Shown one piece after another: positions 9,535 to 52,698 of a DNA stretch of 64,000 nucleotides. This DNA comes from a bacterium (lineage in GTDB: Bacteria > SZUA-79 > Acidulodesulfobacterales > Acidulodesulfobacteraceae), in the NCBI GenBank assembly GCA_021812245.1, contig JAKAOK010000004.1:18223-82222 (forward strand), read 5' to 3'. A program made the position numbers and the translations under genes. The notes beneath the pieces were generated by a model that had not been told where the DNA came from, did no database searches, and saw nothing but the letters and a program-made list of their open reading frames with translations. Numbering within the stretch: the stretch's first letter is position 1; every line of letters starts with the position of its first letter.

Positions 9535-9585
9535 AAATACTCTCCATATTTAATCTTAAATTAGGAATTAATTCTTCGTCTTTTT

Positions 9586-10737
9586 TCACATCCCGGGCAT
9601 TCCCGCCATAGAGCCCGTAGTCTGCGACAGATTGGAGTCGCTCGACATAAGAAACGTTCCCGATACTACGATTCTCTCGCCGTCTTTTAAGCCTGATATT
9701 ACCGGATAGTAATCACCGTACCTTGTTCCTATAACGACATATTTAGGTATAAAATATCCTTTTCCTTTATAAACGAAAACCAGCGGTTTTGCCCCGGTAA
9801 TAAGAACGGCGGATGTAGGAACCGCAACGGTCTTTTCGCTTTTAACCGCAATTTCGGCATTCCCGTACATACCCGGCTTTATCTCGCCGTTCGGGTTGTC
9901 AAAAACGAGCCTGACCTCGTCAACTCTTTTTTTGCCGGCAAGATAAGGGTAGATAAACGACGTCCTGCCGTAAAATATCCGCCCGGGATAAGCGTTAAAC
10001 GTTACCTTTACCGTTGCCCCCGTCTTTATGAAAGACATATCCTTTTCATAGACCCATATATTCATCCATACGCGGTTTAGACCTGCCAGCTTAAAAAGCG
10101 GCTGACCTGCATTAAAGTAGCTTCCCGAAAAGATATATTTTTTTAAAAAAACGCCGCTTATCGGCGAATAAACCGTAGTATTTGTTAAAATAGGCATCCC
10201 TGTTTTCAGTCCGTTTATCTGGCTGTTTGTCACGCCAAACTGCTTAAGCCTGTATATCGAAGAGTTTAAAAATCCTTTGGCCTCTTTTTTTCCGAAATTA
10301 AAACCCGATTTTTTTAATTTTTTATAATTTTCATAGGCAAGTATAAAATTGTTTTCACTGTTGACTAATTGCGGACTGTAAACCGTTAAAAGAGGCTCTC
10401 CCTTAACAACGCTCATGCCCGGTTTATTTATAAAGAGTTCTTTGACGTAACCGCCGTATTTCAATGTTACGATTTTTTCGAGCGGCACACTGTAAGTAGT
10501 CTCGCCTATGGTTTTAATTTTTCTTGTCAAATTCATCAATTTTACTCTTCCTATTTTTATGCCGTAAAGCTGTCTTTGTGCAGTATTAACCATTATTCCA
10601 CCTTTAGCCATCTTCATTTTGGGCTTTGAGCCGATTTGCGCGGGATTGCCTGCATTTTTATTTCTTACGATTAAAAATGTTACAAAGCCGCCAAAAAGAA
10701 AAGCCGCCAAAAAAATTAAAATATTTTTAGTTTTCAT
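9586..10737 (-). CDS. efflux RND periplasmic adaptor subunit (CusB-like)
   Basis: 383 aa with signal/anchor helix and HlyD/MFP-like barrel-sandwich region. Met-rich N-terminal (KPKMKMAKGGIM) and C-terminal (GSMAGMPGM) tails. Located between the OMF and RND genes. Confidence 0.8.
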   Translation of the reverse strand: MKTKNILIFLAAFLFGGFVTFLIVRNKNAGNPAQIGSKPKMKMAKGGIMVNTAQRQLYGIKIGRVKLMNLTRKIKTIGETTYSVPLEKIVTLKYGGYVKELFINKPGMSVVKGEPLLTVYSPQLVNSENNFILAYENYKKLKKSGFNFGKKEAKGFLNSSIYRLKQFGVTNSQINGLKTGMPILTNTTVYSPISGVFLKKYIFSGSYFNAGQPLFKLAGLNRVWMNIWVYEKDMSFIKTGATVKVTFNAYPGRIFYGRTSFIYPYLAGKKRVDEVRLVFDNPNGEIKPGMYGNAEIAVKSEKTVAVPTSAVLITGAKPLVFVYKGKGYFIPKYVVIGTRYGDYYPVISGLKDGERIVVSGTFLMSSDSNLSQTTGSMAGMPGM

Positions 10738-10777
10738 TTCTTTTAAAATCTCCGTATTTTTATTTAATTTATTTTTT

Positions 10778-12064
10778 TTAAATCCCGCCTGCGATTAAAT
10801 CAAGGCGCGATTTATCTGCAAAATATTTTGACTTGTAAATATCTTTTTCAAACTCCGAATTGGCCAATTTCCTAAAACTGTCAAGAAGCGAAAAACCGGT
10901 TGTTTTTTTAACCTTAAAAGATGATAATTCGGACTTAAAAAGAAGTTTCGCTTCAGGAACATATAAATTCTTATAAAGTTTATAATTATTGTAATCTTCT
11001 TTCATATTTTTTAAATCTTCCCTGATATTTTTGATTATTTTTAATTTTTCCCAGCTGATATTATAAACAGATGAAAGTTTGTCTTTTTTTGCCTTATTTA
11101 TTAAGGGCGCTTGATAACTATTAAAATATATGGGGAGCGATAACCCGACTGATGCCGATAAAACAGGAACCATAGAATATCTGTCGCCATAACCCGCTTT
11201 TAGATAAAAATCCGGCAAATAACTTTCTTTCGCAAAATCAAGTTCTTCATTTGCTCTTTTATGCAGGTATTTTACCGATTTTAAATCAGGATTAAATTCA
11301 AATGCCTCTTTAAGTATTATTTTATATTCCAACCTTGTTTGATTAATTCTCTTTATATCCGGTAATACTGCCGTTTTAGATTTAATCAAAGATTTCTTTA
11401 AACCGGTAAGCTCGCTTAATAAATTAATTAATTTTGATTTCGCTTTAGCCAAAGAAAATAGCGATGCCTTTAAAGAAGAATCCTCCAGCATTGTCCTTAT
11501 ATATGAAGGAGCTGAAGTTTCCCCGACGCCGTATTTTTGCGAAGCATAATTAATAATAATCTTTAAAAGCATTCTGTCGTATTTTATTATGCCGATTTGC
11601 TCCTCTATTAGAGCCAGATTATAATACTCCGCTTTAACTAAATACGCCGTATTAACCTTCAAAGCCCGTGTTTTTTCTTTAAGCGACATATAAGAATATT
11701 TATTGATTTGACTTTTTGTTTCAAGTTTAGAAGGGAACGGTATCTTCTGGCTTATGTTTAAACCGATATCGCTCATAGAATTAACTCCTATCCCGGGATT
11801 GTTAAATCCGTTTGCATCGGTTATTCCGATGCCTATCACCGGCTCAGGAAGCGCTTTGGCAATTATAATTTCTTCTTTTTGCCCTTCGGTTTTAAGCGCT
11901 GATGAGGTTATATCTGGATTTTTCAAAGAATTTTTTACAAGCATTTTTAAAGATAGCGTTCCTGCCGCATAAGAACAACCGCTATAAAAAATTAAACTTG
12001 TTAAAATTAAAAAGAAAGAAAATAGTTTTAATTTATATTTATTAATATTCATATTATTCTCCAT
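10778..12064 (-). CDS. TolC-family outer membrane efflux protein (CusC-like)
   Basis: 428 aa, signal peptide with a possible lipobox (FYSGC), coiled-coil-rich repeat halves. Operon position upstream of the adaptor and RND genes. Confidence 0.75.
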   Translation of the reverse strand: MENNMNINKYKLKLFSFFLILTSLIFYSGCSYAAGTLSLKMLVKNSLKNPDITSSALKTEGQKEEIIIAKALPEPVIGIGITDANGFNNPGIGVNSMSDIGLNISQKIPFPSKLETKSQINKYSYMSLKEKTRALKVNTAYLVKAEYYNLALIEEQIGIIKYDRMLLKIIINYASQKYGVGETSAPSYIRTMLEDSSLKASLFSLAKAKSKLINLLSELTGLKKSLIKSKTAVLPDIKRINQTRLEYKIILKEAFEFNPDLKSVKYLHKRANEELDFAKESYLPDFYLKAGYGDRYSMVPVLSASVGLSLPIYFNSYQAPLINKAKKDKLSSVYNISWEKLKIIKNIREDLKNMKEDYNNYKLYKNLYVPEAKLLFKSELSSFKVKKTTGFSLLDSFRKLANSEFEKDIYKSKYFADKSRLDLIAGGI

Positions 12065-13445: not shown

Positions 13446-14675
13446 TTATAAATATACGGTATCTTCTCTAAATCCGGTTTTTAAAAACAGCAGGATATAA
13501 TCCCTTAAATGACGGGTAATTAAAAAGCTGTGCTTCACGTGGTTATGCCCGTTTTCCCCAAGCTGTTTAGCATATTCGGGATTTTGCAGTATCTGCTTTG
13601 CGTATAAAGCGGTTCCTTCTATCGTTCTGGATAAAAGTCCGGAATATTTGTGGGTAATTTGAAGCGGTATGCCTCCGACCGCCGATGCTATCACGGGTTT
13701 AGATTTCCATAAGCCTTCGGAAACGGTAAGACCGAAGCCTTCCTTTATGGATTTTTGCAATATTACGGTTGACGCCCTCTGGAGCGCGTTTATTTCGATA
13801 TTGCTAACGGGCGGAAGATTTAAAACGAATATATCTTTATCCTCTCCCGCCTTCTCTATAACTTCGTTATAAACTTCGGTCGCTTCGGGATCGTCCGCCG
13901 CCGCTCCGCCTGCAAGAATAAGCTGGCAATCGACGTATTTTTTAACGAGCCTGTAAACGTCGATGACCCCTAACGGGTCTTTTAACCTGTCGAATCTTGA
14001 AATCTGGGTAATAATATTTCTTTCGGGGTCTATGCGAAATCTTTCGAGTACTTCGTTTATAGTTTCTGCCGGCAAATCTTTATTTTTATCGGAAAGAGGG
14101 TCTATCGACGGTGAAATTAATATCTGGGGTATTTTAAGTTTTTTTGCAAATAGGGGAGAGGAAAAAACTGAATAATCGTATTTTTCGATGAATTTTTTTA
14201 AAAAATTAAACGTATCCGTATTAGCCGAGCTTAAATCTATATGGCACCTCCAGATAAATTTTTTTTTATTAAAGCCCTTCCTATCCTTAACTTTTATTAA
14301 TCCTATCGGCTGGGGGTCGTGTATAAATATAATATCGCCTAGCAGATTAATTTCTTTCAAATTTTCGTCCGTAACATCGAGAAAGTGTCCGAAATCGCTT
14401 TCCGATATATTCTCCTCAACGCCGTGAAGGGAATTATGAATTTTTTTTGTTATTTCAAAAAATTTTTCTCCGCCTTTTATAAAATCCCATCTGGCATCGA
14501 CGCCGACTTCTTTTAAGAGAGGCACCATTCCGGAAAGAATTTCGGCAACACCGCCGCCGACCGGAGTAGAATTTATATTTTGAATAATTTTTCCGTTTAG
14601 ATAAGAACCTAATTTCTCAATTTCTTCTATCGTTTCTTCGCCTACAATATCTGCGTAATCCTTTATAGACCTCAT
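13446..14675 (-). CDS. GT4-family glycosyltransferase, trehalose-synthase (TreT)-like
   Basis: 409 aa. N-terminus (INSTPVGGGVAEIL) and C-terminal E-x7-E-type region (EGFGLTVSEGLWK) are typical of retaining GT-B enzymes annotated as trehalose synthase. Sits in a trehalose gene neighbourhood. Confidence 0.7.
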   Translation of the reverse strand: MRSIKDYADIVGEETIEEIEKLGSYLNGKIIQNINSTPVGGGVAEILSGMVPLLKEVGVDARWDFIKGGEKFFEITKKIHNSLHGVEENISESDFGHFLDVTDENLKEINLLGDIIFIHDPQPIGLIKVKDRKGFNKKKFIWRCHIDLSSANTDTFNFLKKFIEKYDYSVFSSPLFAKKLKIPQILISPSIDPLSDKNKDLPAETINEVLERFRIDPERNIITQISRFDRLKDPLGVIDVYRLVKKYVDCQLILAGGAAADDPEATEVYNEVIEKAGEDKDIFVLNLPPVSNIEINALQRASTVILQKSIKEGFGLTVSEGLWKSKPVIASAVGGIPLQITHKYSGLLSRTIEGTALYAKQILQNPEYAKQLGENGHNHVKHSFLITRHLRDYILLFLKTGFREDTVYL

Positions 14676-16458: not shown

Positions 16459-18012
16459 TTAAATAAAATAAAGAGCGGCAAGAAAGTTATACGCCCAGTC
16501 GTAAATATCGTTTTCCATAATTATATTTTGCATCTTTGTAATTCTCGTTTCTTTTTCTTCTTTATCCATCATAAGAGCTTCGTATATTTTTTCGGCAAAG
16601 CATTCGGTATTGAATGGGTTAACTAAAAAAGAATCGTACAGCTCTTTAGACGACCCTGCAAATTTAGACAGTATAAGCATGCCTTTATAATCGGTATCGG
16701 ACATAATATATTCTTTAGAAACAAGATTCATCCCGTCGTGCAAAGGAGAAACTATCATAATATCGCAAAGCCTGTAATATGCCAAATAAACTTTTAATTC
16801 AAGCTGTTTAAAATAACCTGCTACCGGATGCCATTCCGATGTTCCGTATTTCCAGTTAATATCGCTGATAAGCTCTATAATTTCCTCGTTTAATTTCTTA
16901 TAAGCATTAATATGCACTCTTGAAGGAACGCCGAACTGGACAAAAACAAATTTGCCTATAAGCTCCTGATGGTTTTCAAGCATAGTATCGACAGCCTTGA
17001 GCTTTTCTACGATTCCTTTGGTATAGTCGAGCCTATCAGTAGATACTGCTAAATATTCATACGACTGCCCGGTGATTTCGTCGTTCTTTTTGATTTTATC
17101 TATAATTTTATCGGTTTCTCTCGACTTCGCAAAATGATGCAGATAGTCGGCATCGACTGAAATCGGGAAAGGCTTAACCCATGTTTTATGCCCATTGTAT
17201 GTGACCGAATAATCAGACCAGTTTACTTGAGCTTCAAGCTCCCATTCACACGTTCTTAAAAAATTCTGGCAGTGGTAAATTATTTGAAATCCTATCAGGT
17301 CGTTTGCCAGCAAACCTTCAAGGAGTTCATGCTTTTCGGGGCATATAGAAAATATTTCGGGGTTAGGCCACGGAATATGCCAGAATATCGAAATTTTAAT
17401 ATTTTCGTCATATTCTTTTATGTATTTTGCACATCTCGCAAGATGATAGTCCTGAAGCCATATAACATTTTCCGGCGACGACGTAAAATTCACGGTCTCG
17501 TCCGAATCGGATACATCTGAAATATTGTTTAAATCATTAAATTTGCAACAATTTTTTGATTCCTCGATTTCTTCTATTATAGAATCCGCAAATTTTTTAT
17601 TAACGTCGTCGTAAGTTAAAAATTGGGCGGAATTAAAAACAGGCTTAACGTAAACAATGTGGCATAGCGGCCATAAAACGGAATTTGCGTAGCCGTAATA
17701 ATAATCGTTTATATCTTTTTTGTTAAGAAAAATTCTTTTAAGGGTATAGGACTCTTCGCCTTCGGAAAGTTTTATCCTGCCTTTTTGGTCGGATACCGTT
17801 TTATCGGCATTTCCGCCACCGTAAACAACCCATGTCCCGCTAAGATTTTTCATAATCGGTTCAAGGGCAATAGTAAGACCGCCGACAGATTTTACCGCTT
17901 TGATTGTTTTTCCGAAATATTCGTGGGATACGGGTTCTCTATTGGAGGCGACTATTAAATTAATATTGCCTAATTTTTCTTTAATTAAATCATTAAATCT
18001 TTTTTTTTCCAT
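16459..18012 (-). CDS. otsA: alpha,alpha-trehalose-phosphate synthase (GT20)
   Basis: 517 aa, N-terminal VASNREPVSH motif and GT20-like core (WLQDYHL, FWHIPWP). Confidence 0.85.
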   Translation of the reverse strand: MEKKRFNDLIKEKLGNINLIVASNREPVSHEYFGKTIKAVKSVGGLTIALEPIMKNLSGTWVVYGGGNADKTVSDQKGRIKLSEGEESYTLKRIFLNKKDINDYYYGYANSVLWPLCHIVYVKPVFNSAQFLTYDDVNKKFADSIIEEIEESKNCCKFNDLNNISDVSDSDETVNFTSSPENVIWLQDYHLARCAKYIKEYDENIKISIFWHIPWPNPEIFSICPEKHELLEGLLANDLIGFQIIYHCQNFLRTCEWELEAQVNWSDYSVTYNGHKTWVKPFPISVDADYLHHFAKSRETDKIIDKIKKNDEITGQSYEYLAVSTDRLDYTKGIVEKLKAVDTMLENHQELIGKFVFVQFGVPSRVHINAYKKLNEEIIELISDINWKYGTSEWHPVAGYFKQLELKVYLAYYRLCDIMIVSPLHDGMNLVSKEYIMSDTDYKGMLILSKFAGSSKELYDSFLVNPFNTECFAEKIYEALMMDKEEKETRITKMQNIIMENDIYDWAYNFLAALYFI

Positions 18013-18140: not shown

Positions 18141-19031
18141 ATGTTTTATAACGGAATTAAAGAATTTAACGAAATAAAAACAAATATAATTTCAGGTTTC
18201 GCCGAAGTAGCTTATAAGCCGGATTTTATATTTTTTTGCGTTGACTTCGACGGAACATTAGTAAATATATGCAAAAACCCTTTGGATGCTTACGCTCCCG
18301 AACAGCTTAAATTTTTTTTAAAAACCGCAGGTAAAATAAAAAATGTAATCTTATGCGTAATTACGGGGCGGGAACTGTACGATATACAAAACAGGGTCGG
18401 CATCTGCAAAAACATTATTTATTCCGGCAACCACGGTTTTGAGATAAAAAGTTATTACGATAGCCTTAAAATTGATTTCCTTGTAAAAAACGCCGAAAAA
18501 TATATTCCGCTGATACAAAAAACATTAAACAAAATAAATAAATTTCAAAAAACTGAATTGCAAAATTTAATCGTAGAAGACAAAAAATTCTCTATAAGCA
18601 TGCATTACAGGTTATTAAATTCCGGCGAAACTAAAATTTTAAAAGCATATATAAAAAATTTGCTTTCTAAAAATCCTTTATTTGATGAATATTTACATAT
18701 AACAAAGGGGAAAAAGATTATGGAAATAAGGCCTAATATCGACTGGAACAAAGGGCGCGCCTGTGATTATATCGTAAATGAATTCTCGAAACCGGCATTA
18801 AAAAAAGAATTAAATATTTTAAGAGTAAATATCGGGGACGATATTACGGACGAAACTATGTTTGTGCCGGACTATAAAATAAAAACCGCCTCGGACGGCA
18901 CAAATATAAAAGTAAAAACAATAAACTGCGTAATCGGAAAGAAAAAATCCCTCGCGGAGATTTACCTTGACGGATATAAATACACGCCGGTTTTCATAGA
19001 AAATATCTTATCCGCTTTTAAAGAAACTTAA
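18141..19031 (+). CDS. otsB: trehalose-phosphatase (HAD superfamily)
   Basis: HAD motifs DFDGTL, ITGR, GDDITDE. Divergently arranged with otsA. Confidence 0.8.
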   Translation: MFYNGIKEFNEIKTNIISGFAEVAYKPDFIFFCVDFDGTLVNICKNPLDAYAPEQLKFFLKTAGKIKNVILCVITGRELYDIQNRVGICKNIIYSGNHGFEIKSYYDSLKIDFLVKNAEKYIPLIQKTLNKINKFQKTELQNLIVEDKKFSISMHYRLLNSGETKILKAYIKNLLSKNPLFDEYLHITKGKKIMEIRPNIDWNKGRACDYIVNEFSKPALKKELNILRVNIGDDITDETMFVPDYKIKTASDGTNIKVKTINCVIGKKKSLAEIYLDGYKYTPVFIENILSAFKET

Positions 19032-19085: not shown

Positions 19086-19949
19086 TTAAAATCTAAACCT
19101 TACGCCTGCTTCTGGACCGTCAAACTCTAAACTGCCGTTTACGCCGTTAGTATCTACATGGACTTTATCGTACACGTAATCCGCAAAAATAGACAGCGGA
19201 CCGACGGTTTTATAATTCACTCCAACATTTGCATGGTAATAATAACCGTCGGCCCCGACGGTAAATCCCTGAAATTTTCCAATAAAAGAAAAATCGTTTA
19301 AAGGCGATATTTTTATTCTTCCGCCTATTAAGGGTATGGGCAAATTTACGTTTTTTGACTCCGATAACCCTAAAGAAGCCGAATCTAATTCCGTTTTAGC
19401 CGTGATGACGTCCACGCCCACGCCAAGCCCGATGGAAGCGTATCTGTTAATCTCGAAATTATGGTCGTAAAACATTTTGTAGCTGTAAAGGTCTAATTTT
19501 GAATTAACCTCGGCGTTTATATTATATTCCTGGCCGTTGAAATAGACATTTTGAGATAATACCTTGGAGCCGCTATATTCATAAGGAACATATGTAAAAG
19601 AAATCCTATTGTCGTATAAAATATAAATAGCCGCTTTCAGCATAGGTTCGGTTTTGGTTGTTTGAAGCCCTAAATCCGAAGGGGTTATATTAGTAGGTCC
19701 GTTTCCTCCGACATTCCCCCCGGCTGCAACATGCCCCGTAAGATTCTGAAAATATGCCCCGCCTTTCACCTCGAACCCAAGTATGCCGGACGCATAAACT
19801 TTAGAAACGCCGGAAAAAACAAAGTAACATGCGCAAACAATAATAAATAATAATATTGCCAATCTAAGAGGTCTCTTTGACGTAAAAGCGTCATTGCGAG
19901 CTAAGCGAAGCAATCTCTTTCTTTTAAAATTTTTTAAATTTTCGGTCAT
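19086..19949 (-). CDS. outer-membrane beta-barrel protein (start codon uncertain)
   Basis: Signal-like segment LAILLFIIVCACYFVFSGVSKVYA, alternating beta-strand pattern, C-terminal ...GVRFRF. The annotated N-terminus (KRLLRLARNDA) is read through a copy of the palindromic repeat unit at 19890-19915. Confidence 0.55.
   Translation of the reverse strand: MTENLKNFKRKRLLRLARNDAFTSKRPLRLAILLFIIVCACYFVFSGVSKVYASGILGFEVKGGAYFQNLTGHVAAGGNVGGNGPTNITPSDLGLQTTKTEPMLKAAIYILYDNRISFTYVPYEYSGSKVLSQNVYFNGQEYNINAEVNSKLDLYSYKMFYDHNFEINRYASIGLGVGVDVITAKTELDSASLGLSESKNVNLPIPLIGGRIKISPLNDFSFIGKFQGFTVGADGYYYHANVGVNYKTVGPLSIFADYVYDKVHVDTNGVNGSLEFDGPEAGVRFRF
19890..19915. repeat. single unit of the GTCATTGCGAGC-AGCGAAGCAATC repeat inside the 5' end of the OMP ORF
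   Basis: GTCATTGCGAGCTAAGCGAAGCAATC read directly. Compare 6215, 13378, 56840 and 60692. Confidence 0.8.
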
Positions 19950-20183: not shown

Positions 20184-21796
20184 CCCAAATCCCGATTTAG
20201 AAATTTAATACCTCTATAACTTAACCGATTTTTTATTTTTTTTAAAAAATCGGTTATTTTTCTATGCGGTATTATAAAAATACTTTTATTTTGACTTCAA
20301 AAAAATAATTTCTGTAAAATATATTGGAAAATTATATTTTAAGACTGTTTTCAGGCGCAATCCTCCTGTATAGTCGTTAAATTTTCCAAAAATAAGTTCA
20401 TACGCATAATATTTTCTGCCTTAATCCCAAAAGCAGCTTAAATCTATCCATATCCGTTTTTATTTTTAGAATAATATTGCCGGAATGTTTTATTATTTTT
20501 CCGGCTATATTAAAGAAAGACCATCTGAAAGTTTTTATTGTGTTATTTGAAAAAAACGGATTTAAAGATTTAAACCCTATAAAGAGATTATAGGATAGAA
20601 TGCCTATTGCAAAATATGCCTCGTTTGCAGCAAACGTCCCGCATGGCATACTTTCCATGGAAAAACCGCATTTAATCTCTTTATTGAAGTTCTCTGCCTG
20701 TCCTCTTTTATTGTGCCAGTTTAATATTTCCAATGGTTTTCCCTCGAGATTTGTAGCTACCGCATGATAAAAATATTGCCCTTCAAATAAATCGGGTTGT
20801 TTCCTGTATTCCCTTTTTATGATAAGCCTAAATGCTTTATCTGTTTTATTGGTACAGTGTATGGCTTCTGATATTTCAAAGTCTAATCCTTGGGGCTTTA
20901 TCCATTCCTCGATTGATTTAATAGCCTTTTTAACGGAAGAATCGAGATCCGCGGTTATTGCCCATTTAACGTTATCTTCTTCAAGTAAATTTATTAAAGA
21001 GGATTGATAAGATGCGCTGTCCGCCCTAAAGTATTTTATTGTTTTGCCGTAAGGCATATTATTTTTGCACTTTTTATAGAAATCTACATGATTATAGGCG
21101 GGAGAGATATTACCCTCCCTGAACTCATTATGCAGGCATATGCCGTTTTCAAATAAAAAACCGAGCATCGGCATATACCCCTTATTATTTTTATAAGTGT
21201 ACATACATTCTCTTTTCTCTGCCGTAATTTCGGTTGCATCTATATCCAAGGTATATTCGGCTATATCTTCCTTTTCAATTATTTTTTTTATTACCGAAGA
21301 ATTTATAGAATTTAATTCTTCTATATCTGTTCTTCTTAGCCAGTCTCCAACAGTATCGGGCTCCGGAATAATTTTAATGCCGGTAATGCCTAACAGTTCT
21401 TTTTCGTTTTTAAGTTCTCTTAAATCGTCTAAGCATCCTCCTCCCGCAGTTAATAGGAGGACTAAAGAATTTACAAATACCGAAGGCTTAAATCCTCTGT
21501 TGCTTTTAGGGGAGGCAAGATATTTATCAGACAGTTCCGTTAAGCCGATAGATTGGTTATATTCTGCAAAAATAGATAATCCCGCCTTTGAAGTTAATTT
21601 ATCTTTCGTCATTTCTAACTTGAAAGGAAATAGAGTTTGTTGTATCATTATTAATAACCCCCTTATTTTTTTCTATAGTTTGTGAAACCTTTTTGGTTGG
21701 AGATTTCAGTGATTATTATATCACGTAAACATAGAAAAATTAAGGGGGTTTTGTCATATTTATAGTTATTTTTTTTGTTCTAAATCGGGATTTGGG
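20184..21796 (-). mobile_element. IS1380-family insertion sequence, apparently intact (about 1.6 kb)
   Basis: Perfect 19-bp terminal inverted repeats CCCAAATCCCGATTTAGAA (20184-20202 and rc of 21778-21796). Single transposase ORF. Abutting direct repeat CTTTAC (20178-20183 and 21797-21802). Size, CC ends and short DR fit what I recall of IS1380. Confidence 0.85.
20398..21648 (-). CDS. IS1380-family DDE transposase
   Basis: 416 aa. N-terminal LTSKAGLSIF... and the central FREGNISPA motif are shared with the second copy at 46762..48014. Confidence 0.85.
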   Translation of the reverse strand: MIQQTLFPFKLEMTKDKLTSKAGLSIFAEYNQSIGLTELSDKYLASPKSNRGFKPSVFVNSLVLLLTAGGGCLDDLRELKNEKELLGITGIKIIPEPDTVGDWLRRTDIEELNSINSSVIKKIIEKEDIAEYTLDIDATEITAEKRECMYTYKNNKGYMPMLGFLFENGICLHNEFREGNISPAYNHVDFYKKCKNNMPYGKTIKYFRADSASYQSSLINLLEEDNVKWAITADLDSSVKKAIKSIEEWIKPQGLDFEISEAIHCTNKTDKAFRLIIKREYRKQPDLFEGQYFYHAVATNLEGKPLEILNWHNKRGQAENFNKEIKCGFSMESMPCGTFAANEAYFAIGILSYNLFIGFKSLNPFFSNNTIKTFRWSFFNIAGKIIKHSGNIILKIKTDMDRFKLLLGLRQKILCV

Positions 21797-22120: not shown

Positions 22121-22792
22121 ATGATAAAAGCCGTAATGATAGAGGACGATAAAGAAATTGCCGAACTTTTAAAAGAATATCTGCATCGCTTTAATATTGA
22201 CTTGACAAATTTTGAAAACGCGGAAGAAGGGCTTAAAGTCCTTAATGAAAAAAACGGCGAATTTGACATTTTGATATTAGATCTTACCTTGCCAGACATT
22301 GACGGCTTAGAAATTTGCAAAACAGTTTCGCGCTCAATCAATATCCCCATAATAATATCATCTGCAAGAGGAGATTATTCCGATATAGTGACCGGTCTTG
22401 AAATCGGCGCAGACGATTACGTAGCAAAGCCTTATAATCCGCGCGAACTTGTAGCAAGAATAAGGTCGCTTATAAGAAGAAAAACCGGACAAAAATCCAT
22501 ACCGAAACCTTTTGAAATAGACGAAACTAAAATGATTATAAAAAAAGACGGCGAAACCATAGATTTAACGTCCGCCGAATACGAACTTTTTCTTACTTTG
22601 TATAAAAACAAGGGCAACGTAATTACCCGCGACTTTATACTTGAAAATATAAAAACTATGAGTTATGAAAGCATCGACCGAAGCGTGGACGTCTTAATAG
22701 GAAGAATAAGAAAGAAAATAGGCGACGACCCTAAAAATCCAAAATATATTAAATCTATAAGGGGTTACGGCTATAAATTTTATGAAAATTAA
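22121..22792 (+). CDS. OmpR-family response regulator
   Basis: Receiver domain (DLTLPDIDG, phospho-Asp context) plus winged-helix C-terminus (IKSIRGYGYKF). Confidence 0.9.
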   Translation: MIKAVMIEDDKEIAELLKEYLHRFNIDLTNFENAEEGLKVLNEKNGEFDILILDLTLPDIDGLEICKTVSRSINIPIIISSARGDYSDIVTGLEIGADDYVAKPYNPRELVARIRSLIRRKTGQKSIPKPFEIDETKMIIKKDGETIDLTSAEYELFLTLYKNKGNVITRDFILENIKTMSYESIDRSVDVLIGRIRKKIGDDPKNPKYIKSIRGYGYKFYEN

Positions 22793-24029
22793 CAGGCATT
22801 CGGTATTGTTTAAAATCAACGTCGTCTTTATTTTAATTTTCATCATACTTCTGTTCTTTTATTTTTCGGCTTATAGAATTATTAACCGCATCGAAACTTT
22901 TCATTTTATAAAAAAAGTGATATTTTTGGCAAAGAAAAATAAATTGACCGACGAAAATTTTTTAGAAATAAGTTTAATAAAAAATAGAAAAGACATCTTA
23001 AAAATTTTAAAGGGGGGTAAATATTTATTAAAAAGAAACCCGCCCCGCGTTAGCTATATATTATCTTTATTAATATATAAAGGAAACGAATACATATATT
23101 TAAAATCAAAAATAGGAAAATCCGATTTTTTATTAGAAAGACGACCAAAAGCTTACGGCAGGCTGGAAATTTTAACGGCGGCATGGCTGGGATTAGATTT
23201 TGTTCTTATTCTTCTCTATTTAAGCATATACCGCTCTATAAACCCTCTCGGTAAGCTCAGGAATAAAATAGAGGAATTTAAAAACGGCAACATCGACGTA
23301 AATTTAGACGGATATATCGATAGAAAAGATGAAATCGGTTATGTTGCAAAAGAACTTAAGGGTGCCATAGATAACGTTAAAAAAACGATTAATACGAGGA
23401 CGTGGTTTATAAGAAATATTGCCCATGAATTAAAAACGCCGATTACTAAAGGAAAAATTGCGTTAGAGCTTTTAAAAGACGAAGACGAAAACAGAAAAAA
23501 AGTATTCGCCGATATTTTTATTAGATTAGAAACGCTTATAAATGAGCTTTTTTCTTCGGAAAAAATTGCCGCAGGAAACAAAGAAATAAATTTAACTTCA
23601 TTTAATTTTCAGGATGCTATAAACAGGGCTAAGGAACTCCTCTTAGTAAAACAAGACGAAAATATAGAGATAATGTTAGACGTAGAATACGCCGTTAAAG
23701 CAGACTTCGACCTGCTAAGCATTGCAGTTAAAAATCTAATAGAAAACGGCATTAAATTTAGCGATAACAAAAAAGTAACCGTCGAGATAAAAAACGACAT
23801 TTTAAGTTTTACAAATACCGGAAATAAACCGTCTATCCCGGAAGAAGCAATATTCGAACCGTTTTTAAAAGATACCAATATAAAAAATAAAGACGGATTC
23901 GGCCTTGGACTTTATATAACGAAACAGATACTCGAAAAACACGGGTTAAAAATTAAGTATGAATACTTAAAAGGAGAGAATGTTTTTTCTATCGATTTAC
24001 ATAAAATAATATACGTCAAAACTTTATAA
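22782..24029 (+). CDS. sensor histidine kinase
   Basis: Two TM segments, HAMP-like linker, H-box IAHELKTPIT, and N/G boxes (NLIENGIKFS, GFGLGLYI). Overlaps the regulator gene by 11 nt. Confidence 0.85.
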   Translation: MKINRHSVLFKINVVFILIFIILLFFYFSAYRIINRIETFHFIKKVIFLAKKNKLTDENFLEISLIKNRKDILKILKGGKYLLKRNPPRVSYILSLLIYKGNEYIYLKSKIGKSDFLLERRPKAYGRLEILTAAWLGLDFVLILLYLSIYRSINPLGKLRNKIEEFKNGNIDVNLDGYIDRKDEIGYVAKELKGAIDNVKKTINTRTWFIRNIAHELKTPITKGKIALELLKDEDENRKKVFADIFIRLETLINELFSSEKIAAGNKEINLTSFNFQDAINRAKELLLVKQDENIEIMLDVEYAVKADFDLLSIAVKNLIENGIKFSDNKKVTVEIKNDILSFTNTGNKPSIPEEAIFEPFLKDTNIKNKDGFGLGLYITKQILEKHGLKIKYEYLKGENVFSIDLHKIIYVKTL

Positions 24030-29098: not shown

Positions 29099-30853
29099 TT
29101 AACGATTATTTTTTGTTATTACCGCCTCTGCGCACCTGATTCCGTCTATGGCGCTCGTAATTATTCCGCCGGAATATCCGGAACCCTCTCCGCATGGGTA
29201 CAGACCTTTAACCGACATAGATTCGTAATCGGAATTTCTTTTAATTCTTACGGCAGACGAAGTTCCCGTTTCGAGTCCCGTTAAAACCGATTTTGCGGCA
29301 AATCCGTTAAATTTGCTTTCAAACTCGTTCAATGACCCCGCAATAGATAAATTTAAAAAATCCGGCAACAATTTAAAAAGATTAAAATATTTAACCGAGG
29401 GCTTGTACGACGGCGCAGGTATGCCGGGGGCGGAGGAATTTTTTACGCTCAGGCCGACACGGGCACCGGCGCATGCATTATAAACGTCTTTCATATAATC
29501 CGGCGTATATTGATAAGGGGCGGCGAAATTTCCTCCCCCTGCCTCATACGCTTTAAATTCTAAATCTTTTCTGAACTGCAGGGCTCCAGTTCCCAAAGAA
29601 TATCTGTCCGGGTCTATCCCGTCCAACATTTCCGGCCTGACCGCCCCAACGATTGCGCTGTTGGAATTTTCCATATCCCTGCCGGAATAGCTCATACCGT
29701 TAACACAGAGGAGATTTTCGCCGGAACTCGCATTGATAACGACGCCGCCGGGACACATGCAGAAAGAATATCCGCCGTATTTTTTAGATGATATATTGTA
29801 ATACACACCTTTTAGTTTTACGCCTTCTTTCCCGGCGTTTCCCCTGAAAAATAAACCGTCCGCAAAATCCCTTTTATGCTCTATTCTGAAGCCCGCCGCA
29901 AAAGGCTTTCTTTCCATAGCGACCCCTTTTCTCTCTAATAATTCATAGGTGTCGTAGCTGTTAGACCCCGAAGCTAAAATAACGGAGTCTGTTTTAAAAA
30001 TCCTCTTATCTGTCTTAGCCGAACATACCGACCCGCTTTCGTTAATCTCAAAATCCTTCAATTCTTCTTCAAAATAAATTTCGGCTCCGTTCTTAATTAA
30101 ATGTTCTCTTATTTCTTTCAATATATGAATCAGATTGTCGCTTCCGAGGTGAGGTTTGTGCTCCGTTAAAATATTCCTATCCGCTCCCATTTTTACTAAA
30201 AAATTTAAAACATAAAAAACGGCGGGATCGTTTTTTCTCGTCGTAAGTTTTCCGTCCGAAAATGTTCCGGCGCCGCCTTCCCCGAATACTACATTGCTTT
30301 TTTTGTCGAATATGGCGTTATCCAGCAAGTCCTTGACGTCTTTTATCCTGTCTTCTACCCGCTTTCCTTTTTCTATTAAAATAGGTTTTACGCCGTTTTT
30401 CAATAGATAGGCGGCGGCAAAAATTCCGGCGGGACCCATTCCGGTTATGAGGACTTTGGTTTTATTACGCTTCGCGATGTTTTTATTTTGAACTTCCGCG
30501 GACATCGAAATATCCGCTTCTTCAAGGTTAAACAATCTTTCTTCTTCATTATCCGCCTTTCTCGCTTTTACGCCGATTTTATCCAATAAACCTATAAAGC
30601 CGTCCTCCTGACCAGCAGCAGTATTAAATTTTATCAAGACTTTAAAAACCTTTTTTTGCTCTTTTTGCCTTAAATCCACCGATTTTTTCAAAATTTTTAC
30701 GTCAAAATTCCGGCCTGATTTTAAGAATTGTTCAAATTTATCCGGAGCATAATCATTCAAATAATCGATAAAATAATCTAAAAAAAGCTCTTCGTCTTCT
30801 TTGAATTTTTCCGCATCATTTACCGGAATTTTAAAATCGTAAACGATTATCAT
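29099..30853 (-). CDS. FAD-dependent oxidoreductase (COG2509-like uncharacterised dehydrogenase)
   Basis: Dinucleotide-binding GMGPAGIFAA, C-terminal GLYPCGEGSGYSGGIITSAIDG motif. Confidence 0.7.
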   Translation of the reverse strand: MIIVYDFKIPVNDAEKFKEDEELFLDYFIDYLNDYAPDKFEQFLKSGRNFDVKILKKSVDLRQKEQKKVFKVLIKFNTAAGQEDGFIGLLDKIGVKARKADNEEERLFNLEEADISMSAEVQNKNIAKRNKTKVLITGMGPAGIFAAAYLLKNGVKPILIEKGKRVEDRIKDVKDLLDNAIFDKKSNVVFGEGGAGTFSDGKLTTRKNDPAVFYVLNFLVKMGADRNILTEHKPHLGSDNLIHILKEIREHLIKNGAEIYFEEELKDFEINESGSVCSAKTDKRIFKTDSVILASGSNSYDTYELLERKGVAMERKPFAAGFRIEHKRDFADGLFFRGNAGKEGVKLKGVYYNISSKKYGGYSFCMCPGGVVINASSGENLLCVNGMSYSGRDMENSNSAIVGAVRPEMLDGIDPDRYSLGTGALQFRKDLEFKAYEAGGGNFAAPYQYTPDYMKDVYNACAGARVGLSVKNSSAPGIPAPSYKPSVKYFNLFKLLPDFLNLSIAGSLNEFESKFNGFAAKSVLTGLETGTSSAVRIKRNSDYESMSVKGLYPCGEGSGYSGGIITSAIDGIRCAEAVITKNNR

Positions 30854-31929: not shown

Positions 31930-32035
31930 AAGGAGTAATCCGACGGTACGGTATCGAGATTGAAAACCCCGCCAGGTTCGAAAGAAAGCAACGGTATCGA
32001 TTCAAAGTACGCGTATTTAATCGGATTGCTCTTTC
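31930..32035 (+). ncRNA. ffs: small (4.5S-type) signal recognition particle RNA
   Basis: Domain IV signature CC-AGG-UUC-GAAA-GAA-AGCA-ACGG (GNRA tetraloop flanked by AGG/AGCA loop residues). Closing helix AGUAAUCCGA / UCGGAUUGCU. T-rich tail. Confidence 0.65.
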
Positions 32036-39232: not shown

Positions 39233-39673
39233 ATGTTTAAAAAAATTCTATGTCCCGTTGATTTCAGCGATACTTCTATGAATGCAGCAAATAATGCCAT
39301 CAATTTTTCTTTGGAAATTAAAGCGGAGATAACGTTTATTCACATTATAGACATTCAGGCATTGCAAAATATAGGCGATTTATCCGGCGGCGGAATAAAC
39401 GATATCAATCTCTTGATAGAAGAAGAAAAACCCGTCTTAAGAAAACTTAAGGACGAGTGTGAAAAAAAGGGCATTAAAGTTAAGACTGTGCTGACCCACG
39501 GAGAGCCTATAAGCGTTATATTGGAAACGATAAAAGAAGACGGTCATGACCTTATAATTATGGGAACCCACGGGAAAACAGGCTTAACAAGATTAGTGCT
39601 TGGCTCGATAGCGGAAAACGTAATAAGAAAATCAGATATTCCGGTTTTATTATATCACTGTAAAAAATGCTGA
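39233..39673 (+). CDS. universal stress protein
   Basis: KILCPVDFS start and the GTHGKTGL...GSIAENV ATP-binding motif. Confidence 0.8.
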   Translation: MFKKILCPVDFSDTSMNAANNAINFSLEIKAEITFIHIIDIQALQNIGDLSGGGINDINLLIEEEKPVLRKLKDECEKKGIKVKTVLTHGEPISVILETIKEDGHDLIIMGTHGKTGLTRLVLGSIAENVIRKSDIPVLLYHCKKC

Positions 39674-39693
39674 CTAATAAATAAAATATAAGT

Positions 39694-40344
39694 TTATTCT
39701 TTGGAATATACTTCCATGACTTTTCCTAAAAATACGGCTTCCGGAACCGCTCCGACCACTTCGGAGGATTCGTTGACCACGGTTTTAGGAACGCTAAAAA
39801 CCGAATACTTATCCGAAAGATTAGGAAATTCCTGAATTTCTACGACATCTGAAGTAATATTGTCGTTTACTATCGCAAAATTATGTGCAAGAACCGCCGC
39901 CGGCGGACAATGAGGTCAGGTAGGGGTTACAAACACCTGAATATTAAAAGGTTTTATAATTTCTTTAAGTTTTTCTATGGTTTTTTCGGAAAGACCGGTT
40001 TCTTTGGCGGAAACGTTAATTATTCCATGAACAAGCGTCATAAATTCATGTCCCGCCGGCATACCGTAATAACGGACGCCGTAATCCCTGTCTCCTTCTA
40101 TAACGATAGCCGGAGTTCTTTTTATATTGTACTGCTTTACCTTGTCTGCATCTTTATCGAAGTCGTATTCTTCAAAGCTTATTTTATCGCTGAGACCGGA
40201 TACCTCAAGCAATATATCTTTTGCTTCCTTGCAATATAAACAGCCGTCTTCGGATTTAAAAAATATAAGCTTAATATTATTTTTAAGCTTATCCTTAAAA
40301 TCTTTCTTTAAAAATTCGGAATCCTGTTCGCTCAACAGAGGCAT
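39694..40344 (-). CDS. two-thioredoxin-fold protein disulfide oxidoreductase (glutaredoxin-like, PfPDO type) with in-frame TGA = probable selenocysteine (U143) in a UPHC active site
   Basis: The track ORF 39916..40344 ends ...IQVFVTPT-TGA (39916-39918). The same frame continues with no stop for 73 codons: PHCPPAAVLAHNFAIVNDNITSDVVEIQEFPNLSDKYSVFSVPKTVVNESSEVVGAVPEAVFLGKVMEVYSKE, ending TAA at 39694-39696. First domain has CLYC. GVRYYGMPAGHEF and VFVTPT-x-PxCP match the PDO family, where x is Cys. Confidence 0.7.
39894..39906 (-). promoter_or_regulatory. candidate SECIS core hairpin
   Basis: mRNA sequence CCGCC-GGC-GGCGG (5 GC pairs, GGC loop) starts 9 nt 3' of the UGA. Confidence 0.35.
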
Positions 40345-40443
40345 ATTTTTATCCTTTATAATTTTAACAATTTTTTCTTTTTTTATTATATAATAGTTTA
40401 CAAACTAATTTCAACAATTAAATAAATTCAATTTAAAAAAAAT

Positions 40444-46540: not shown

Positions 46541-48117
46541 GTTAACTTTAATTTTGCAATAGAAAAAATTACACCTTTGACATATGACCAAAAATGTCAA
46601 TTTTTTAAAAAATGGTAAAATATTAGCTAAATTTAGCCGCCTCTAAAAGTATTTTTTATAATTTTTATTATCATTCCAAGAATATGCTTTAAAATGGTCA
46701 TTTTTTAAGTTTTCAAGACGCACCCCTCCCGTATAATCGTAAGGTTATTTTAAAAAAACATCTATATTTTTTGCAGCGACGATAATATATCTTTGTAATT
46801 TCGGAATCCTTTTTTACTCATGTATAATTTTAATAACAGCCTGCCGGAATGGTTTACTATCCTTCCTACGGTATTAAACAGTAAAAACCTTAAAGATTTA
46901 AGGCTTCTATTAATTCCTGTTATCAAAGAAAATAACTTCATTAAGTTATATACTAATCCGGCTAAGTTTATCCATACGGCGTTTGCATTAAAAGCACCGG
47001 TCGGAAGTTTCCTCAGGGAATAGTCCCATTTCATAGTTTTTATGTAGTATTCGCACGTTCCTCTTAAATTGTAGAAGTTATATACTTCGTTAGGGGACAG
47101 ATCCGAATTGGTCGCTATAGCATAATATTCGTAATAGCATTCTCCGAAAAGGTTAGGATCGTCATACCTTTTCCTTTTTCTGGTAACTGCGAGTCTGAAC
47201 GATTCGGTATTTTCCATAGCATGAACCGTCTCGCCTATCTCGCAGCCGTCTATTTTAGTTCCGTATCTATCTGCGAGGGGTTCCCATTTATCTATTACGG
47301 AATAATCTATTCCGTAATTTTTAGCTCTTATGAAAAACGTTTTATCTTTGCAGTAATTTATAATATTAGCCTGATAGCTTGCGGCATCCGCCCTGTAGTT
47401 TTTTAATTTAATTCCGTTTTCTGAAAGAATATTATCTACATTTATTAGCTGCCCGTATAATCCGGAGGCGGGGGATATGTTTCCGTTTCTAAATTCAGAA
47501 TATATGCAACTTTGGGTTTCGGCTATGAAGCCGTAAAGAATTTGAAGGGCTTTAAATCCCTTATAGCAGGTTTTCGATAAATCCTGTTTGTCCGTTTCTA
47601 TAAACGTTGCATCGGCATCAAAGGTTACCTCGGTTACGCCTGATTTTTTTATAGTCTTAATAGCTATATTCTGCAGCAGGGAATGAGTTCCGTCTATCTG
47701 CCGAATATTCTGTTTTGCAAGAAAAGAACCTATTCTGCTGGTATGGGGCATCTTTTCTATTTCCCAGATACCTTTTAGGGTATCGTCGTCTTTTATATGG
47801 TTTATATCGCTTATGCAGTCCGCGCCGGTTAAAAGACCGGTTGCTATGGATTTTACGTAGATTAAGGGTTTATGAGCCCTATTCGATAAAGGGGATTTAA
47901 AAATAGAAGATATTTTTTTTCCAGATTAAGACTTTTAAACATCTGCGCGATTAATTGCGTTCCGGCAAATGCGGAGTATTTCTTTTCGCCTCTAATTATG
48001 GTATAATTTTTCATATCGATTAACCTCCTTGTTATGTTTTGTTATTGGCTTAGATATCAATAATTATAACATATCGGGAGGTTTTTTTATAGTTCTATTG
48101 CAAGATTAAAGGTTAAC
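46541..48117 (-). mobile_element. second, distinct IS1380-family element (about 1.58 kb)
   Basis: Imperfect 24-25 bp inverted ends GTTAACTTTAATTTTGCAATAGAA (46541-46564) and TTCTATTGCAAGATTAAAGGTTAAC (48093-48117). Encloses an IS1380-type transposase gene. No clear target duplication seen. Confidence 0.7.
46762..48014 (-). pseudogene. IS1380-family transposase interrupted by a frameshift at an A8 run
   Basis: ATG at 48012-48014 opens MKNYTIIRGEKKYSAFAGTQLIAQMFKSLNLEKK. After the A8 run (T8 on the plus strand, 47913-47920) the -1 frame continues ISSIFKSPLSNRAHKP...MPHTSRIGSFLAK into the 329-aa track ORF. The joined product (417 aa) aligns without a gap to the 416-aa copy. Confidence 0.75.
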
Positions 48118-51392: not shown

Positions 51393-52193
51393 TTAGATTT
51401 CCGGTATTGCTATGTTTGCCGGAACCGGCTTAACGCTGTAGGCTTCCGCAAACGATTCGGACATAATTTTAGAAAGGCGGGCGAAACTTAAATCGCTTAA
51501 ACTATAATCGACTCCGGCCTTTTTCATTTCCTGCCGAATACCAGTAATATTATTAAAATATTCCGCATTGTCCGCGGAACTTCCGTCATTGAACAACTCG
51601 ATATGTTCTTCGGGATTATAATCGATATAAATCGACCCGTGCTGTAGAAATGCGGCATCGCTTCTTCTCTGGGAATTGCCGCAAATTTTTCTCCCGCCGA
51701 ACGTTATTTCGTATGAATGGGCTTTAAGGAAACAATTAAAATTGTTTTTTGCCGTCTTATTGTTTTTGCCTTGCGGTGGAACGCCGTTTACGCTCCCGAT
51801 ATCCGGTTTCAAACCTAATTTTACAAAAAAAAGATATAGAAATTCGCCTATTTTTTTATAAGTTTCTATGAGCTTTCCTGCAAAAATACCGTTTTTATAT
51901 GACGCCGTTATGGAATATGTTATTTCCGCTTTATGCAATACCGCCCTGCCTCCCGTAGGCCTCGAAACGATATCGTATCCTTTCTTTTCCGCTTTTTCAA
52001 TAATTCTTTCGTCTATATCTTTGTCTTTTTGAAAAAAACCAAGCGAAAGGGTAGGTGGGGAAAAATAATAAATCCTTAACGTGGGACGACTTGAAAAATC
52101 GTCTGCAATTTTATACTTGTCTAGCAAAAACAAATCGGCTGACATATTGAAAATACCGGAACAGCCGCCGGAAACTATAAGATTAAAACTCAT
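51393..52193 (-). CDS. biotin/lipoate A/B protein ligase family protein (lipoate ligase / octanoyltransferase-like)
   Basis: RPTGGRAVLH motif and a conserved K-containing region. Abuts gcvH with no gap. Confidence 0.6.
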   Translation of the reverse strand: MSFNLIVSGGCSGIFNMSADLFLLDKYKIADDFSSRPTLRIYYFSPPTLSLGFFQKDKDIDERIIEKAEKKGYDIVSRPTGGRAVLHKAEITYSITASYKNGIFAGKLIETYKKIGEFLYLFFVKLGLKPDIGSVNGVPPQGKNNKTAKNNFNCFLKAHSYEITFGGRKICGNSQRRSDAAFLQHGSIYIDYNPEEHIELFNDGSSADNAEYFNNITGIRQEMKKAGVDYSLSDLSFARLSKIMSESFAEAYSVKPVPANIAIPEI

Positions 52194-52580
52194 TCAACCG
52201 TTATTTTTTAAGTATTCTTCATACGCGCTCTGGTCCATTAATTCGTTAAGCTCGTCTTCGTTTGTGAGTTTAACCTTAAGGAGCCATCCCGAGTCGTAAG
52301 GCTCTTCATTTACAAGTTCGGGTTCGTCTTTCAGCAAATCGTTGACGCTGACAACATGCCCGCTGACCGGCGCATAAAGTTCAGAAACGGATTTAGCCGA
52401 TTCTATTGTCCCGAACGATTCGTTCTGCTCTAATTCATAACCGGTTTCGGGCAAATCGACGTATATAATGTCTCCAAGCTGATCCTGCGCGTAATCGGTA
52501 ACCCCTATGAGCGCATTATCCCCGTTGACTTTAACCCAGATATGTTCGGAATTGTATTTTAAGCCTTTTGGAAAATCCAT
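52194..52580 (-). CDS. gcvH: glycine cleavage system protein H
   Basis: 128 aa. Lipoyl-lysine motif ESAKSVSELYAPVSG. Confidence 0.9.
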   Translation of the reverse strand: MDFPKGLKYNSEHIWVKVNGDNALIGVTDYAQDQLGDIIYVDLPETGYELEQNESFGTIESAKSVSELYAPVSGHVVSVNDLLKDEPELVNEEPYDSGWLLKVKLTNEDELNELMDQSAYEEYLKNNG

Positions 52581-52698
52581 AAATCCCCCTTTATTCTTCT
52601 TATTATTATCTATCTTTTTTAATTATTAAAATTATATATTTATATATTTTAATAATATTCTTAAAACATTTGCAATATAAAATTTTATAATTTAATTT

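Follow-up and report, generated by a model that had tools for sequence, protein, structure and literature searches.

The locus examined here raises the question of whether an in-frame TGA codon terminates a short thioredoxin-like protein or is read as selenocysteine (Sec) within a longer, two-domain redox protein. The gene is located on the minus strand of the window, by which we mean the whole stretch of 64 kb that was analysed. Its upstream ORF (40344..39919, minus strand) comprises 142 sense codons ending with ...NIQVFVTPT, the tail of which reads ...KPFNIQVFVTPT, and is followed by TGA at 39918..39916. Beyond this codon the same frame continues with PHCPPAAVLAHNFAIVNDN...GAVPEAVFLGKVMEVYSKE for 73 codons up to a TAA (39696..39694). 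Read through the TGA, the full CDS of the putative selenoprotein extends over 39694..40344 (minus strand) and comprises 216 residues, with the ATG at 40344..40342 and the TGA as codon 143, the first position of a U-P-H-C motif. The part behind the TGA is predicted to yield the tryptic peptides YSVFSVPK, TVVNESSEVVGAVPEAVFLGK and VMEVYSK. A preliminary description of this DNA had already proposed that the gene encodes a UxxC selenoprotein split by ORF calling, and upon re-reading of the sequence each of the coordinates and residues it gave for the split ORF turned out to be correct. It had also claimed that no ATG-initiated ORF covers the downstream stretch. Inspection of the window frame bore this out and did not disclose a GTG- or TTG-initiated ORF either. 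The earliest in-frame start-type codon past the TGA lies at position +46 in the window, and in three related genomes (loci L008, L010 and L012) the first in-frame ATG, GTG or TTG is found only at +67. In the public records the gene is represented by the upstream ORF, as a 142-residue 'hypothetical protein' at NCBI (MDA8402562.1) and as a 'glutaredoxin-like protein' at JGI.

Upstream of the gene, a promoter-like site (TTGAAA-18-TATAAT) is situated at 40385..40414 (minus strand), which agrees with the consensus in 11 of 12 positions and is a consensus match only. A Shine-Dalgarno-like AAGGA was read off the sequence 7 nt ahead of the ATG (40352..40356, minus strand). At its 3' end the selenoprotein gene faces a convergent gene for a universal stress protein, and the gene upstream is divergently oriented; the selenoprotein gene looks monocistronic. 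Within its CDS, approximately 40 nt ahead of the stop codon, a terminator-like hairpin with a T-run was noticed at 39734-39750 (minus strand). The count of such sites was not above that in shuffled sequences, and this hairpin probably occurs by chance.

To which protein family the joined product belongs was determined with U replaced by C. It matched the NCBIfam family TIGR02187, named 'PDO_seleno_TRX, protein disulfide oxidoreductase', with 269 bits at a curated cutoff of 185, residues 6-211 being aligned to positions 2-208 of the 209 positions of the profile. The earlier assignment to the protein disulfide oxidoreductase (PDO) / glutaredoxin-like family is therefore backed by a score above the curated cutoff. 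Pfam assigned the C-terminal unit to Thioredoxin_3 and the N-terminal unit to Thioredoxin/Glutaredoxin. The best solved relative was the PDO of Pyrococcus furiosus (1A8L; E=1.6e-51, residues 1-212 on 1-224), in which FVTPT-C-PYCP lies opposite FVTPT-U-PHCP and the linker GVRYFGLPAGHEF is aligned to GVRYYGMPAGHEF of the protein studied here. The motifs that had been quoted for the P. furiosus protein, FVTPTCPYCPLAVRMAHKFAI and GVRYFGLPAGHEF, are both present in chain 1A8L.

A structural model was calculated by AlphaFold (AF2) using as input the sequence P0001 of a sister strain, which is 98% identical and has W at position 143, together with 72 homologues. It shows one continuous protein consisting of two thioredoxin folds (pLDDT 95, pTM 0.91), in which residue 143 is placed between a strand (133-139) and a helix (146-159), the canonical active-site position of a thioredoxin fold. 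The model could be superimposed on the Aquifex PDO 2AYT with a TM score of 0.96 and an rmsd of 1.1 A, and on 1A8L with a TM score of 0.95, whereas the match to N-terminal domains of AhpF was looser (TM 0.80-0.88). The family match, the 1A8L alignment and the model agree with the previous claim of two thioredoxin folds, one carrying CLYC and the other U-PHC. The 73 codons past the TGA encode a genuine second thioredoxin fold, and none of the homologues stops after the first domain; either a lack of thioredoxin-like similarity or such a natural end had been named as grounds for rejecting the selenoprotein. Thus, the conclusion is well supported that gene callers have cut one 216-residue two-domain redox gene short at an in-frame TGA.

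The TGA falls on a highly conserved position. In the alignment of the joined sequence (U replaced by C) with TIGR02187-type homologues, which had been recommended as a check, a Cys faces the TGA: the column is occupied by Cys in all 72 full-length homologues (44-53% identity). This confirmed that the TGA coincides exactly with the first Cys of the redox motif. Likewise invariant are C35, C38, P144 and C146. The first two belong to the C-L-Y-C motif of the N-terminal unit (codons 35-38, 40231..40242, minus strand) and are unchanged in 73 aligned sequences, while P144 and C146, invariant in the family, are part of the U-P-H-C motif of the C-terminal unit (codons 143-146, 39907..39918, minus strand). 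Not counting the query, the second-unit motif of the Cys forms is CPYC in 55 and CPHC in 17 sequences.

The TGA was also found to recur in other assemblies and lineages. An identical 142-residue stub is encoded on three independently assembled metagenome contigs, the DNA of which is the same through the TGA and the downstream frame; the sole differences are two synonymous SNPs upstream, and two haplotypes are represented. A scan of one genome per species (GTDB) yielded 17 loci with 96% down to 45% identity, all 17 of which have TGA in codon 143 and an open frame behind it. Among them are a genome named Ca. Acidulodesulfobacterium (L014, 86% identity) and an Anaerolineae MAG. Six more TGA forms, with the motif U-PYC, were detected in a metagenome scan among 66 Cys forms. 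Altogether, codon 143 is TGA in 24 of 24 Sec-form loci and the frame remains open past it in these 24 loci (45-96% identity), a recurrence across assemblies and lineages that is far beyond chance. A TGT or TGC codon or a frameshift upon resequencing had been put forward as an outcome that would speak against recoding; instead, the TGA was reproduced in the independent assemblies. Pairwise dN/dS had a median of 0.092 over the 70 codons that follow the TGA and of 0.084 over the 60 that precede it, and a value of 0.06 was obtained for codons +11 to +45. Since in three genomes there is no start before +67, this constraint does not stem from a separately initiated peptide. Judged by these substitution patterns, the codons after the TGA are evidently translated.

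The stop codon is TAA in 29, TGA in eight and TAG in three of the window's 40 long ORFs, and the conserved window genes are full length under code 11. Because TGA terminates eight of the 40 long ORFs, the standard genetic code applies, in line with the former view that this is a case of local recoding and not a code change. Seven database entries (P0001-P0007) are given as 'full-length' proteins of 216-217 residues with W at position 143. The DNA behind P0001 (L023:156-806) has TGA at codon 143. The W entries arose from wrongly translating short contigs with code 4 and are neither Cys nor Trp forms. A search for further recoded genes in the window revealed 22 same-frame TGA junctions, among which the TGA at codon 143 was the only convincing one. 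The sole other long one among these junctions (51393-52622, minus strand; TGA at 52194-52196) joins an upstream part of 142 codons to 266 codons that are LplA-like. Its TGA is directly followed by ATG, and the junction looks like two adjacent genes, not like recoding.

Attempts were made to identify a SECIS element downstream of the TGA. A candidate core of a bacterial SECIS, CCGCC-GGC-GGCGG, is situated at 39894..39906 (minus strand). It is composed of five G-C pairs and the loop GGC (dG -7.0 kcal/mol), is spelled by the codons for Pro-Pro-Ala-Ala-Val and leaves 14 nt between UGA and loop. In the surrounding region, from codon -1 to codon +9 relative to the TGA (39889..39921, minus strand), synonymous change is suppressed and the G+C content amounts to 67% in a gene of 38% G+C. 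The mean synonymous diversity of the ten-codon window at the TGA was 0.07 compared to 0.34 gene-wide (16 close sequences), making this frozen zone the lowest ten-codon window of the gene (permutation P=4e-5). The hairpin is identical in 16-17 of 17 close loci, without covariation within the lineage. These data demonstrate an evolutionarily constrained hairpin near the TGA, which would presumably bind SelB. The sole change in the frozen zone was encountered in L015, where codon +8, directly 3' of the hairpin, is altered from GTT to GCT (Val to Ala). This change strengthens an alternative register, GCCG-GCGG-CGGC (dG -5.7), and the (CCG)/(GGC) repeats within the hairpin permit slipped pairings.

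[quoted passage not shown] The loop (3 nt), the stem (5 bp) and the G in the loop of the candidate agree with this model. The spacing of 14 nt, or 17 if counted from the U, is borderline against the 16-37 nt of the model. With -7.0 for the hairpin alone and -9.4 for a region of 45 nt, the energy is borderline relative to -7.5. Folding energies past the TGA were no better than those of shuffled sequences (z = 0.14, 0.08, -0.41 and -0.06), and no SECIS family was found with Rfam, either in the window at the gathering threshold or in 39600-40400 at E<=10, where only noise was returned. Since neither the energies nor Rfam single out the hairpin, the support for a SECIS is comparative. A long-range helix (AUUGUC/GACAAU) that appeared in the MFE fold was discarded, as it is not kept in relatives, which have GAAAAT or GATTAT.

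For the other Sec lineages, four different hairpins were detected at the same place, with the loops CGUGC, GGU, AGUUG and GUU, lying 17-22 nt past the UGA and having dG values from -3.5 to -14.6. All 24 Sec loci, which represent five independent types, possess a hairpin whose stem has 5 bp or more and whose loop begins with (N)G[G/U]. Among 66 distinct Cys-form sequences, such a hairpin was found in just 13 (p=6.6e-4, calculated for types). This criterion is partly post hoc, its loop pattern being taken from the published model and its thresholds having been set after the hairpins had been viewed. A first criterion, which called for a perfect stem, dG <= -6.5 and a loop containing G, failed to distinguish the two classes, as such hairpins occurred in 1/6 Sec and 6/66 Cys forms.

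The genes of the Sec machinery are not part of the window. Both ARAGORN and Rfam failed to detect a tRNA-Sec in the 64 kb and reported only tRNA-Pro and tRNA-Gly. SelA, SelB and SelD were not among 20 window ORFs of compatible size, which encode trehalose enzymes, CusAB/TolC, AccC, AroB, XerD, GlnD, HtpX and others. ARAGORN, Rfam and this family scan of the ORFs agree with what had been noted at the outset. The genes around the selenoprotein locus belong to other Pfam families. Neither Sec machinery nor a tRNA-Sec was found in the loci fetched from relatives, and ARAGORN reported zero tRNAs for 20 of them. The window is tied to Ca. Acidulodesulfobacterium by its CusA-like protein, which shares a cluster of at least 90% identity with RZV37496.1, and by L014, the locus with 86% identity that bears this name. 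For the lineage, three KEGG orthologues are relevant, K01042, K03833 and K01008, which we take to be selA, selB and selD, respectively. In Table S3 of the paper defining the order, each of the three is listed as 1/1/1/1 for four Ca. Acidulodesulfobacterales genomes, and K00123 and K03388 are likewise given as present. Hence, selA, selB and selD, though not a tRNA-Sec, are reported for the lineage, at second hand and for related genomes; a genome devoid of all Sec-decoding genes had been named as grounds for rejecting the selenoprotein. Selenium is not mentioned in the papers on the Ca. Acidulodesulfobacterium lineage.

Some further features of the window were recorded. A trehalose/glucan cluster (2957-5332, plus strand; 13446-14675, minus; 16459-18012, minus; 18141-19031, plus) contains genes for a glucan 1,4-alpha-glucosidase, a TreT-like trehalose synthase and OtsA-like and OtsB-like proteins, which suggests compatible-solute synthesis by two routes in this acidophile. 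A heavy-metal efflux system, consisting of a CusA/CzcA-type RND pump, a CzcB/CusB-type adaptor and a TolC-like outer-membrane protein, is encoded at 6382-12064 (minus strand), and an ArsS-family kinase is found among the two-component genes at 22121-24029. Transposases are encoded at 46762-47751 and at 20398-21648 (both minus strand), namely a 329-aa DDE type adjoining uvrB and one of the IS1380 family. The DDE copy, which the window shares with L002, is missing from the same place in L001, so that strains are polymorphic for this insertion. At 31935-32032 (plus strand), Rfam identified the bacterial small SRP RNA (RF00169, 50 bits). At E<=1e-10, NCBIfam gave no family for the ORFs 29099-30853, 586-1491 and 19086-19949 (all minus strand; 584, 301 and 287 aa).

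Taken together, the gene with UGA at codon 143 very probably encodes a selenoprotein of the PDO family that is decoded by means of SelB and a SECIS. The continuity of the gene, the family and fold of its product, the Sec/Cys column, translation past the TGA (as judged from selection), the standard code and a constrained hairpin have been established here; that the inserted residue is Sec, that SelB binds the hairpin and which redox partners are used is inferred. The initial proposal of a UxxC selenoprotein split by ORF calling is supported by the family, the Cys column, the selection on both sides of the TGA, the standard code and the constrained hairpin. According to this explanation, one gene would give rise to a cytoplasmic protein of 216 residues with two fused thioredoxin folds, a PDO or 'AhpF N-terminal domain homologue' (TIGR02187). 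The UGA at codon 143 would be translated as Sec by the standard bacterial route, in which the small G+C-rich hairpin inside the CDS, just past the UGA, may serve as SECIS and recruit SelB with Sec-tRNA(Sec) to the ribosome paused at this codon. The genes selA, selB, selD and selC should then reside elsewhere in the genome. Within the enzyme, a selenolate positioned where the active-site helix has its N-terminus would act as attacking nucleophile and C146 as its resolving partner.

As to function, the protein is most likely a Sec-dependent disulfide shuttle between a reductase of the thioredoxin reductase (TrxR) type and peroxiredoxins or other protein disulfides. Electrons would pass from a TrxR-like flavoprotein to PDO and from there to these acceptors, and the enzyme might thereby contribute to the oxidative-stress defence of an acid-mine-drainage bacterium (Ca. 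Acidulodesulfobacterium). A TrxR-like flavoprotein gene adjoins the PDO gene in a split-AhpF-like arrangement in ten Cys-form loci. These are L022 (3016-5239), L026, L049, L060, L064, L074, L078, L080, L083 and L103; in L022 a further thioredoxin/glutaredoxin protein follows the flavoprotein. No TrxR-like gene was found in the window or in the flanks of the Sec forms. With no such gene adjoining, the redox partner is proposed by analogy with PDO and AhpF and from the Cys-form loci. The lineage paper states that peroxiredoxin and thioredoxin reductase are expressed by these bacteria.

The gene caller and the NCBI annotation, which show a 142-aa 'glutaredoxin-like' or 'hypothetical protein', treat the TGA as a genuine stop. 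The product would then be a single-domain thioredoxin-like protein of 142 residues and the 73 codons behind it would be either a remnant in decay or the source of a peptide with its own start. Sec insertion surely has to compete with termination at UGA, so that some truncated product is indeed likely to be made. As an account of the whole gene this reading is nevertheless highly improbable. The downstream dN/dS of 0.06-0.09 equals that of the upstream part, the frame is open in 24 loci of 45-96% identity, no start precedes +67 in three genomes and no homologue ends naturally past domain 1. Moreover, the downstream part contributes the invariant P144 and C146 and the cis-Pro region and completes a fold modelled with a pLDDT of 95. 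Only a single base change is needed to turn TGT or TGC into TGA, which might be attributed to an error of sequencing or assembly or to a recent inactivating nonsense mutation that made the gene a pseudogene. This is scarcely conceivable for a codon that is TGA in three assemblies with two haplotypes, in 17 species-level genomes and in other phyla, and behind which purifying selection persists; the comparative data already refute such an origin.

As to the identity of the residue, the evidence of selection proves translation and not which amino acid is inserted. UGA 143 might be translated as Cys by a Sec-like tRNA(Cys) together with SelB, or as Trp or Cys through near-cognate read-through or a code in which TGA is a sense codon. 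A SelB-dependent UGA-to-Cys system was reportedly described by Vargas-Rodriguez et al. in 2018 and offers a precedent, and some database entries have W at this codon. We consider insertion of another residue improbable, however: the W entries are products of code-4 translation of short contigs, eight of 40 long ORFs end in TGA with the conserved genes intact under code 11, selA and selD, which are required solely for making Sec, are reported in four genomes of the lineage, and the same motif occurs in a recognised Sec family. A variant of the main explanation, which we regard as unlikely overall, is that the element belongs to a distinct minimal class of bacterial SECIS or, less likely still, that UGA is translated as Cys by a SelB-dependent non-canonical tRNA. 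The former could apply to a triloop hairpin of 13 nt made up entirely of G and C that lies 14 nt past the UGA and whose dimensions equal or fall short of the minima set by the consensus model. Either way, the gene could have the 142-residue termination product, in which the thioredoxin unit with CLYC is intact, as a second output that does not depend on selenium. Decoding of UGA 143 as Sec through SelB and a SECIS remains our preferred reading.

The significance of this gene lies mainly in annotation, since it is represented by stubs or false-Trp entries in public collections. All metabolic reconstructions of this lineage from acid mine drainage thereby lack the active-site domain of an enzyme that is likely to serve in stress defence, and entries translated with TGA as Trp could mislead Sec/Cys analyses. 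Ca. Acidulodesulfobacterium and its relatives would use selenocysteine, a trait that the lineage papers leave unmentioned, and a very compact example would be added to the spread of bacterial SECIS shapes. No new question is opened in selenoprotein biology.

The closest known system is the selenoprotein family itself. In a 2026 review, TIGR02187 is already listed as a selenoprotein family with UxxC; in a survey from 2006 the family is recorded for Carboxydothermus hydrogenoformans and Symbiobacterium thermophilum, and a 'glutaredoxin-like' TGA protein, CHY_0740, was recovered in a screen from 2007. The gene studied here shares with the catalogued Sec members the HMM family, a single Sec as the first residue of the second-unit UxxC, and a TGA followed by a hairpin in the coding region, a likeness drawn from the published description. 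It differs by its host, the acidophile Ca. Acidulodesulfobacterium, by U-P-H-C in place of the U-P-Y-C that is commoner in other Sec lineages, and by the hairpin, which among the five types is the one nearest to the UGA (14 nt versus 17-22 nt).

Compared to the PDO proteins of P. furiosus (1A8L) and A. aeolicus (2AYT), homology extends over the full length with 40-42% identity, each unit has a CxxC-type motif and the structures deviate by an rmsd of 1.1-1.2 A. Points of difference are CPYC there and UPHC here, and short insertions in the second unit of the archaeal proteins. PDO activity and partnership with TrxR have been measured experimentally for the P. furiosus and A. aeolicus proteins. 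With the N-terminal domain of AhpF it has in common the double-thioredoxin-fold module and a redox-active CxxC position in the second fold. TIGR03140 and TIGR03143 gave partial matches only, the former reaching 81 bits (cutoff 503) over positions 12-199 of 515. Unlike AhpF (~520 residues), the protein stands alone with 216 residues, lacks a fused FAD/NAD(P)H reductase, has retained the CxxC of the N-terminal unit and has no flavoprotein neighbour in the window.

The candidate SECIS resembles the E. coli fdhF-type and consensus bSECIS elements in being a coding-region hairpin 3' of the UGA with a small loop starting in GG or GU. With 5 bp and a loop of 3 nt, it is much smaller than the fdhF type, and its spacing and energy are at or just outside the limits of the model. 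Thus, the selenoprotein family is known, and what is new is the host lineage together with the U-P-H-C variant and its very compact hairpin near the UGA.
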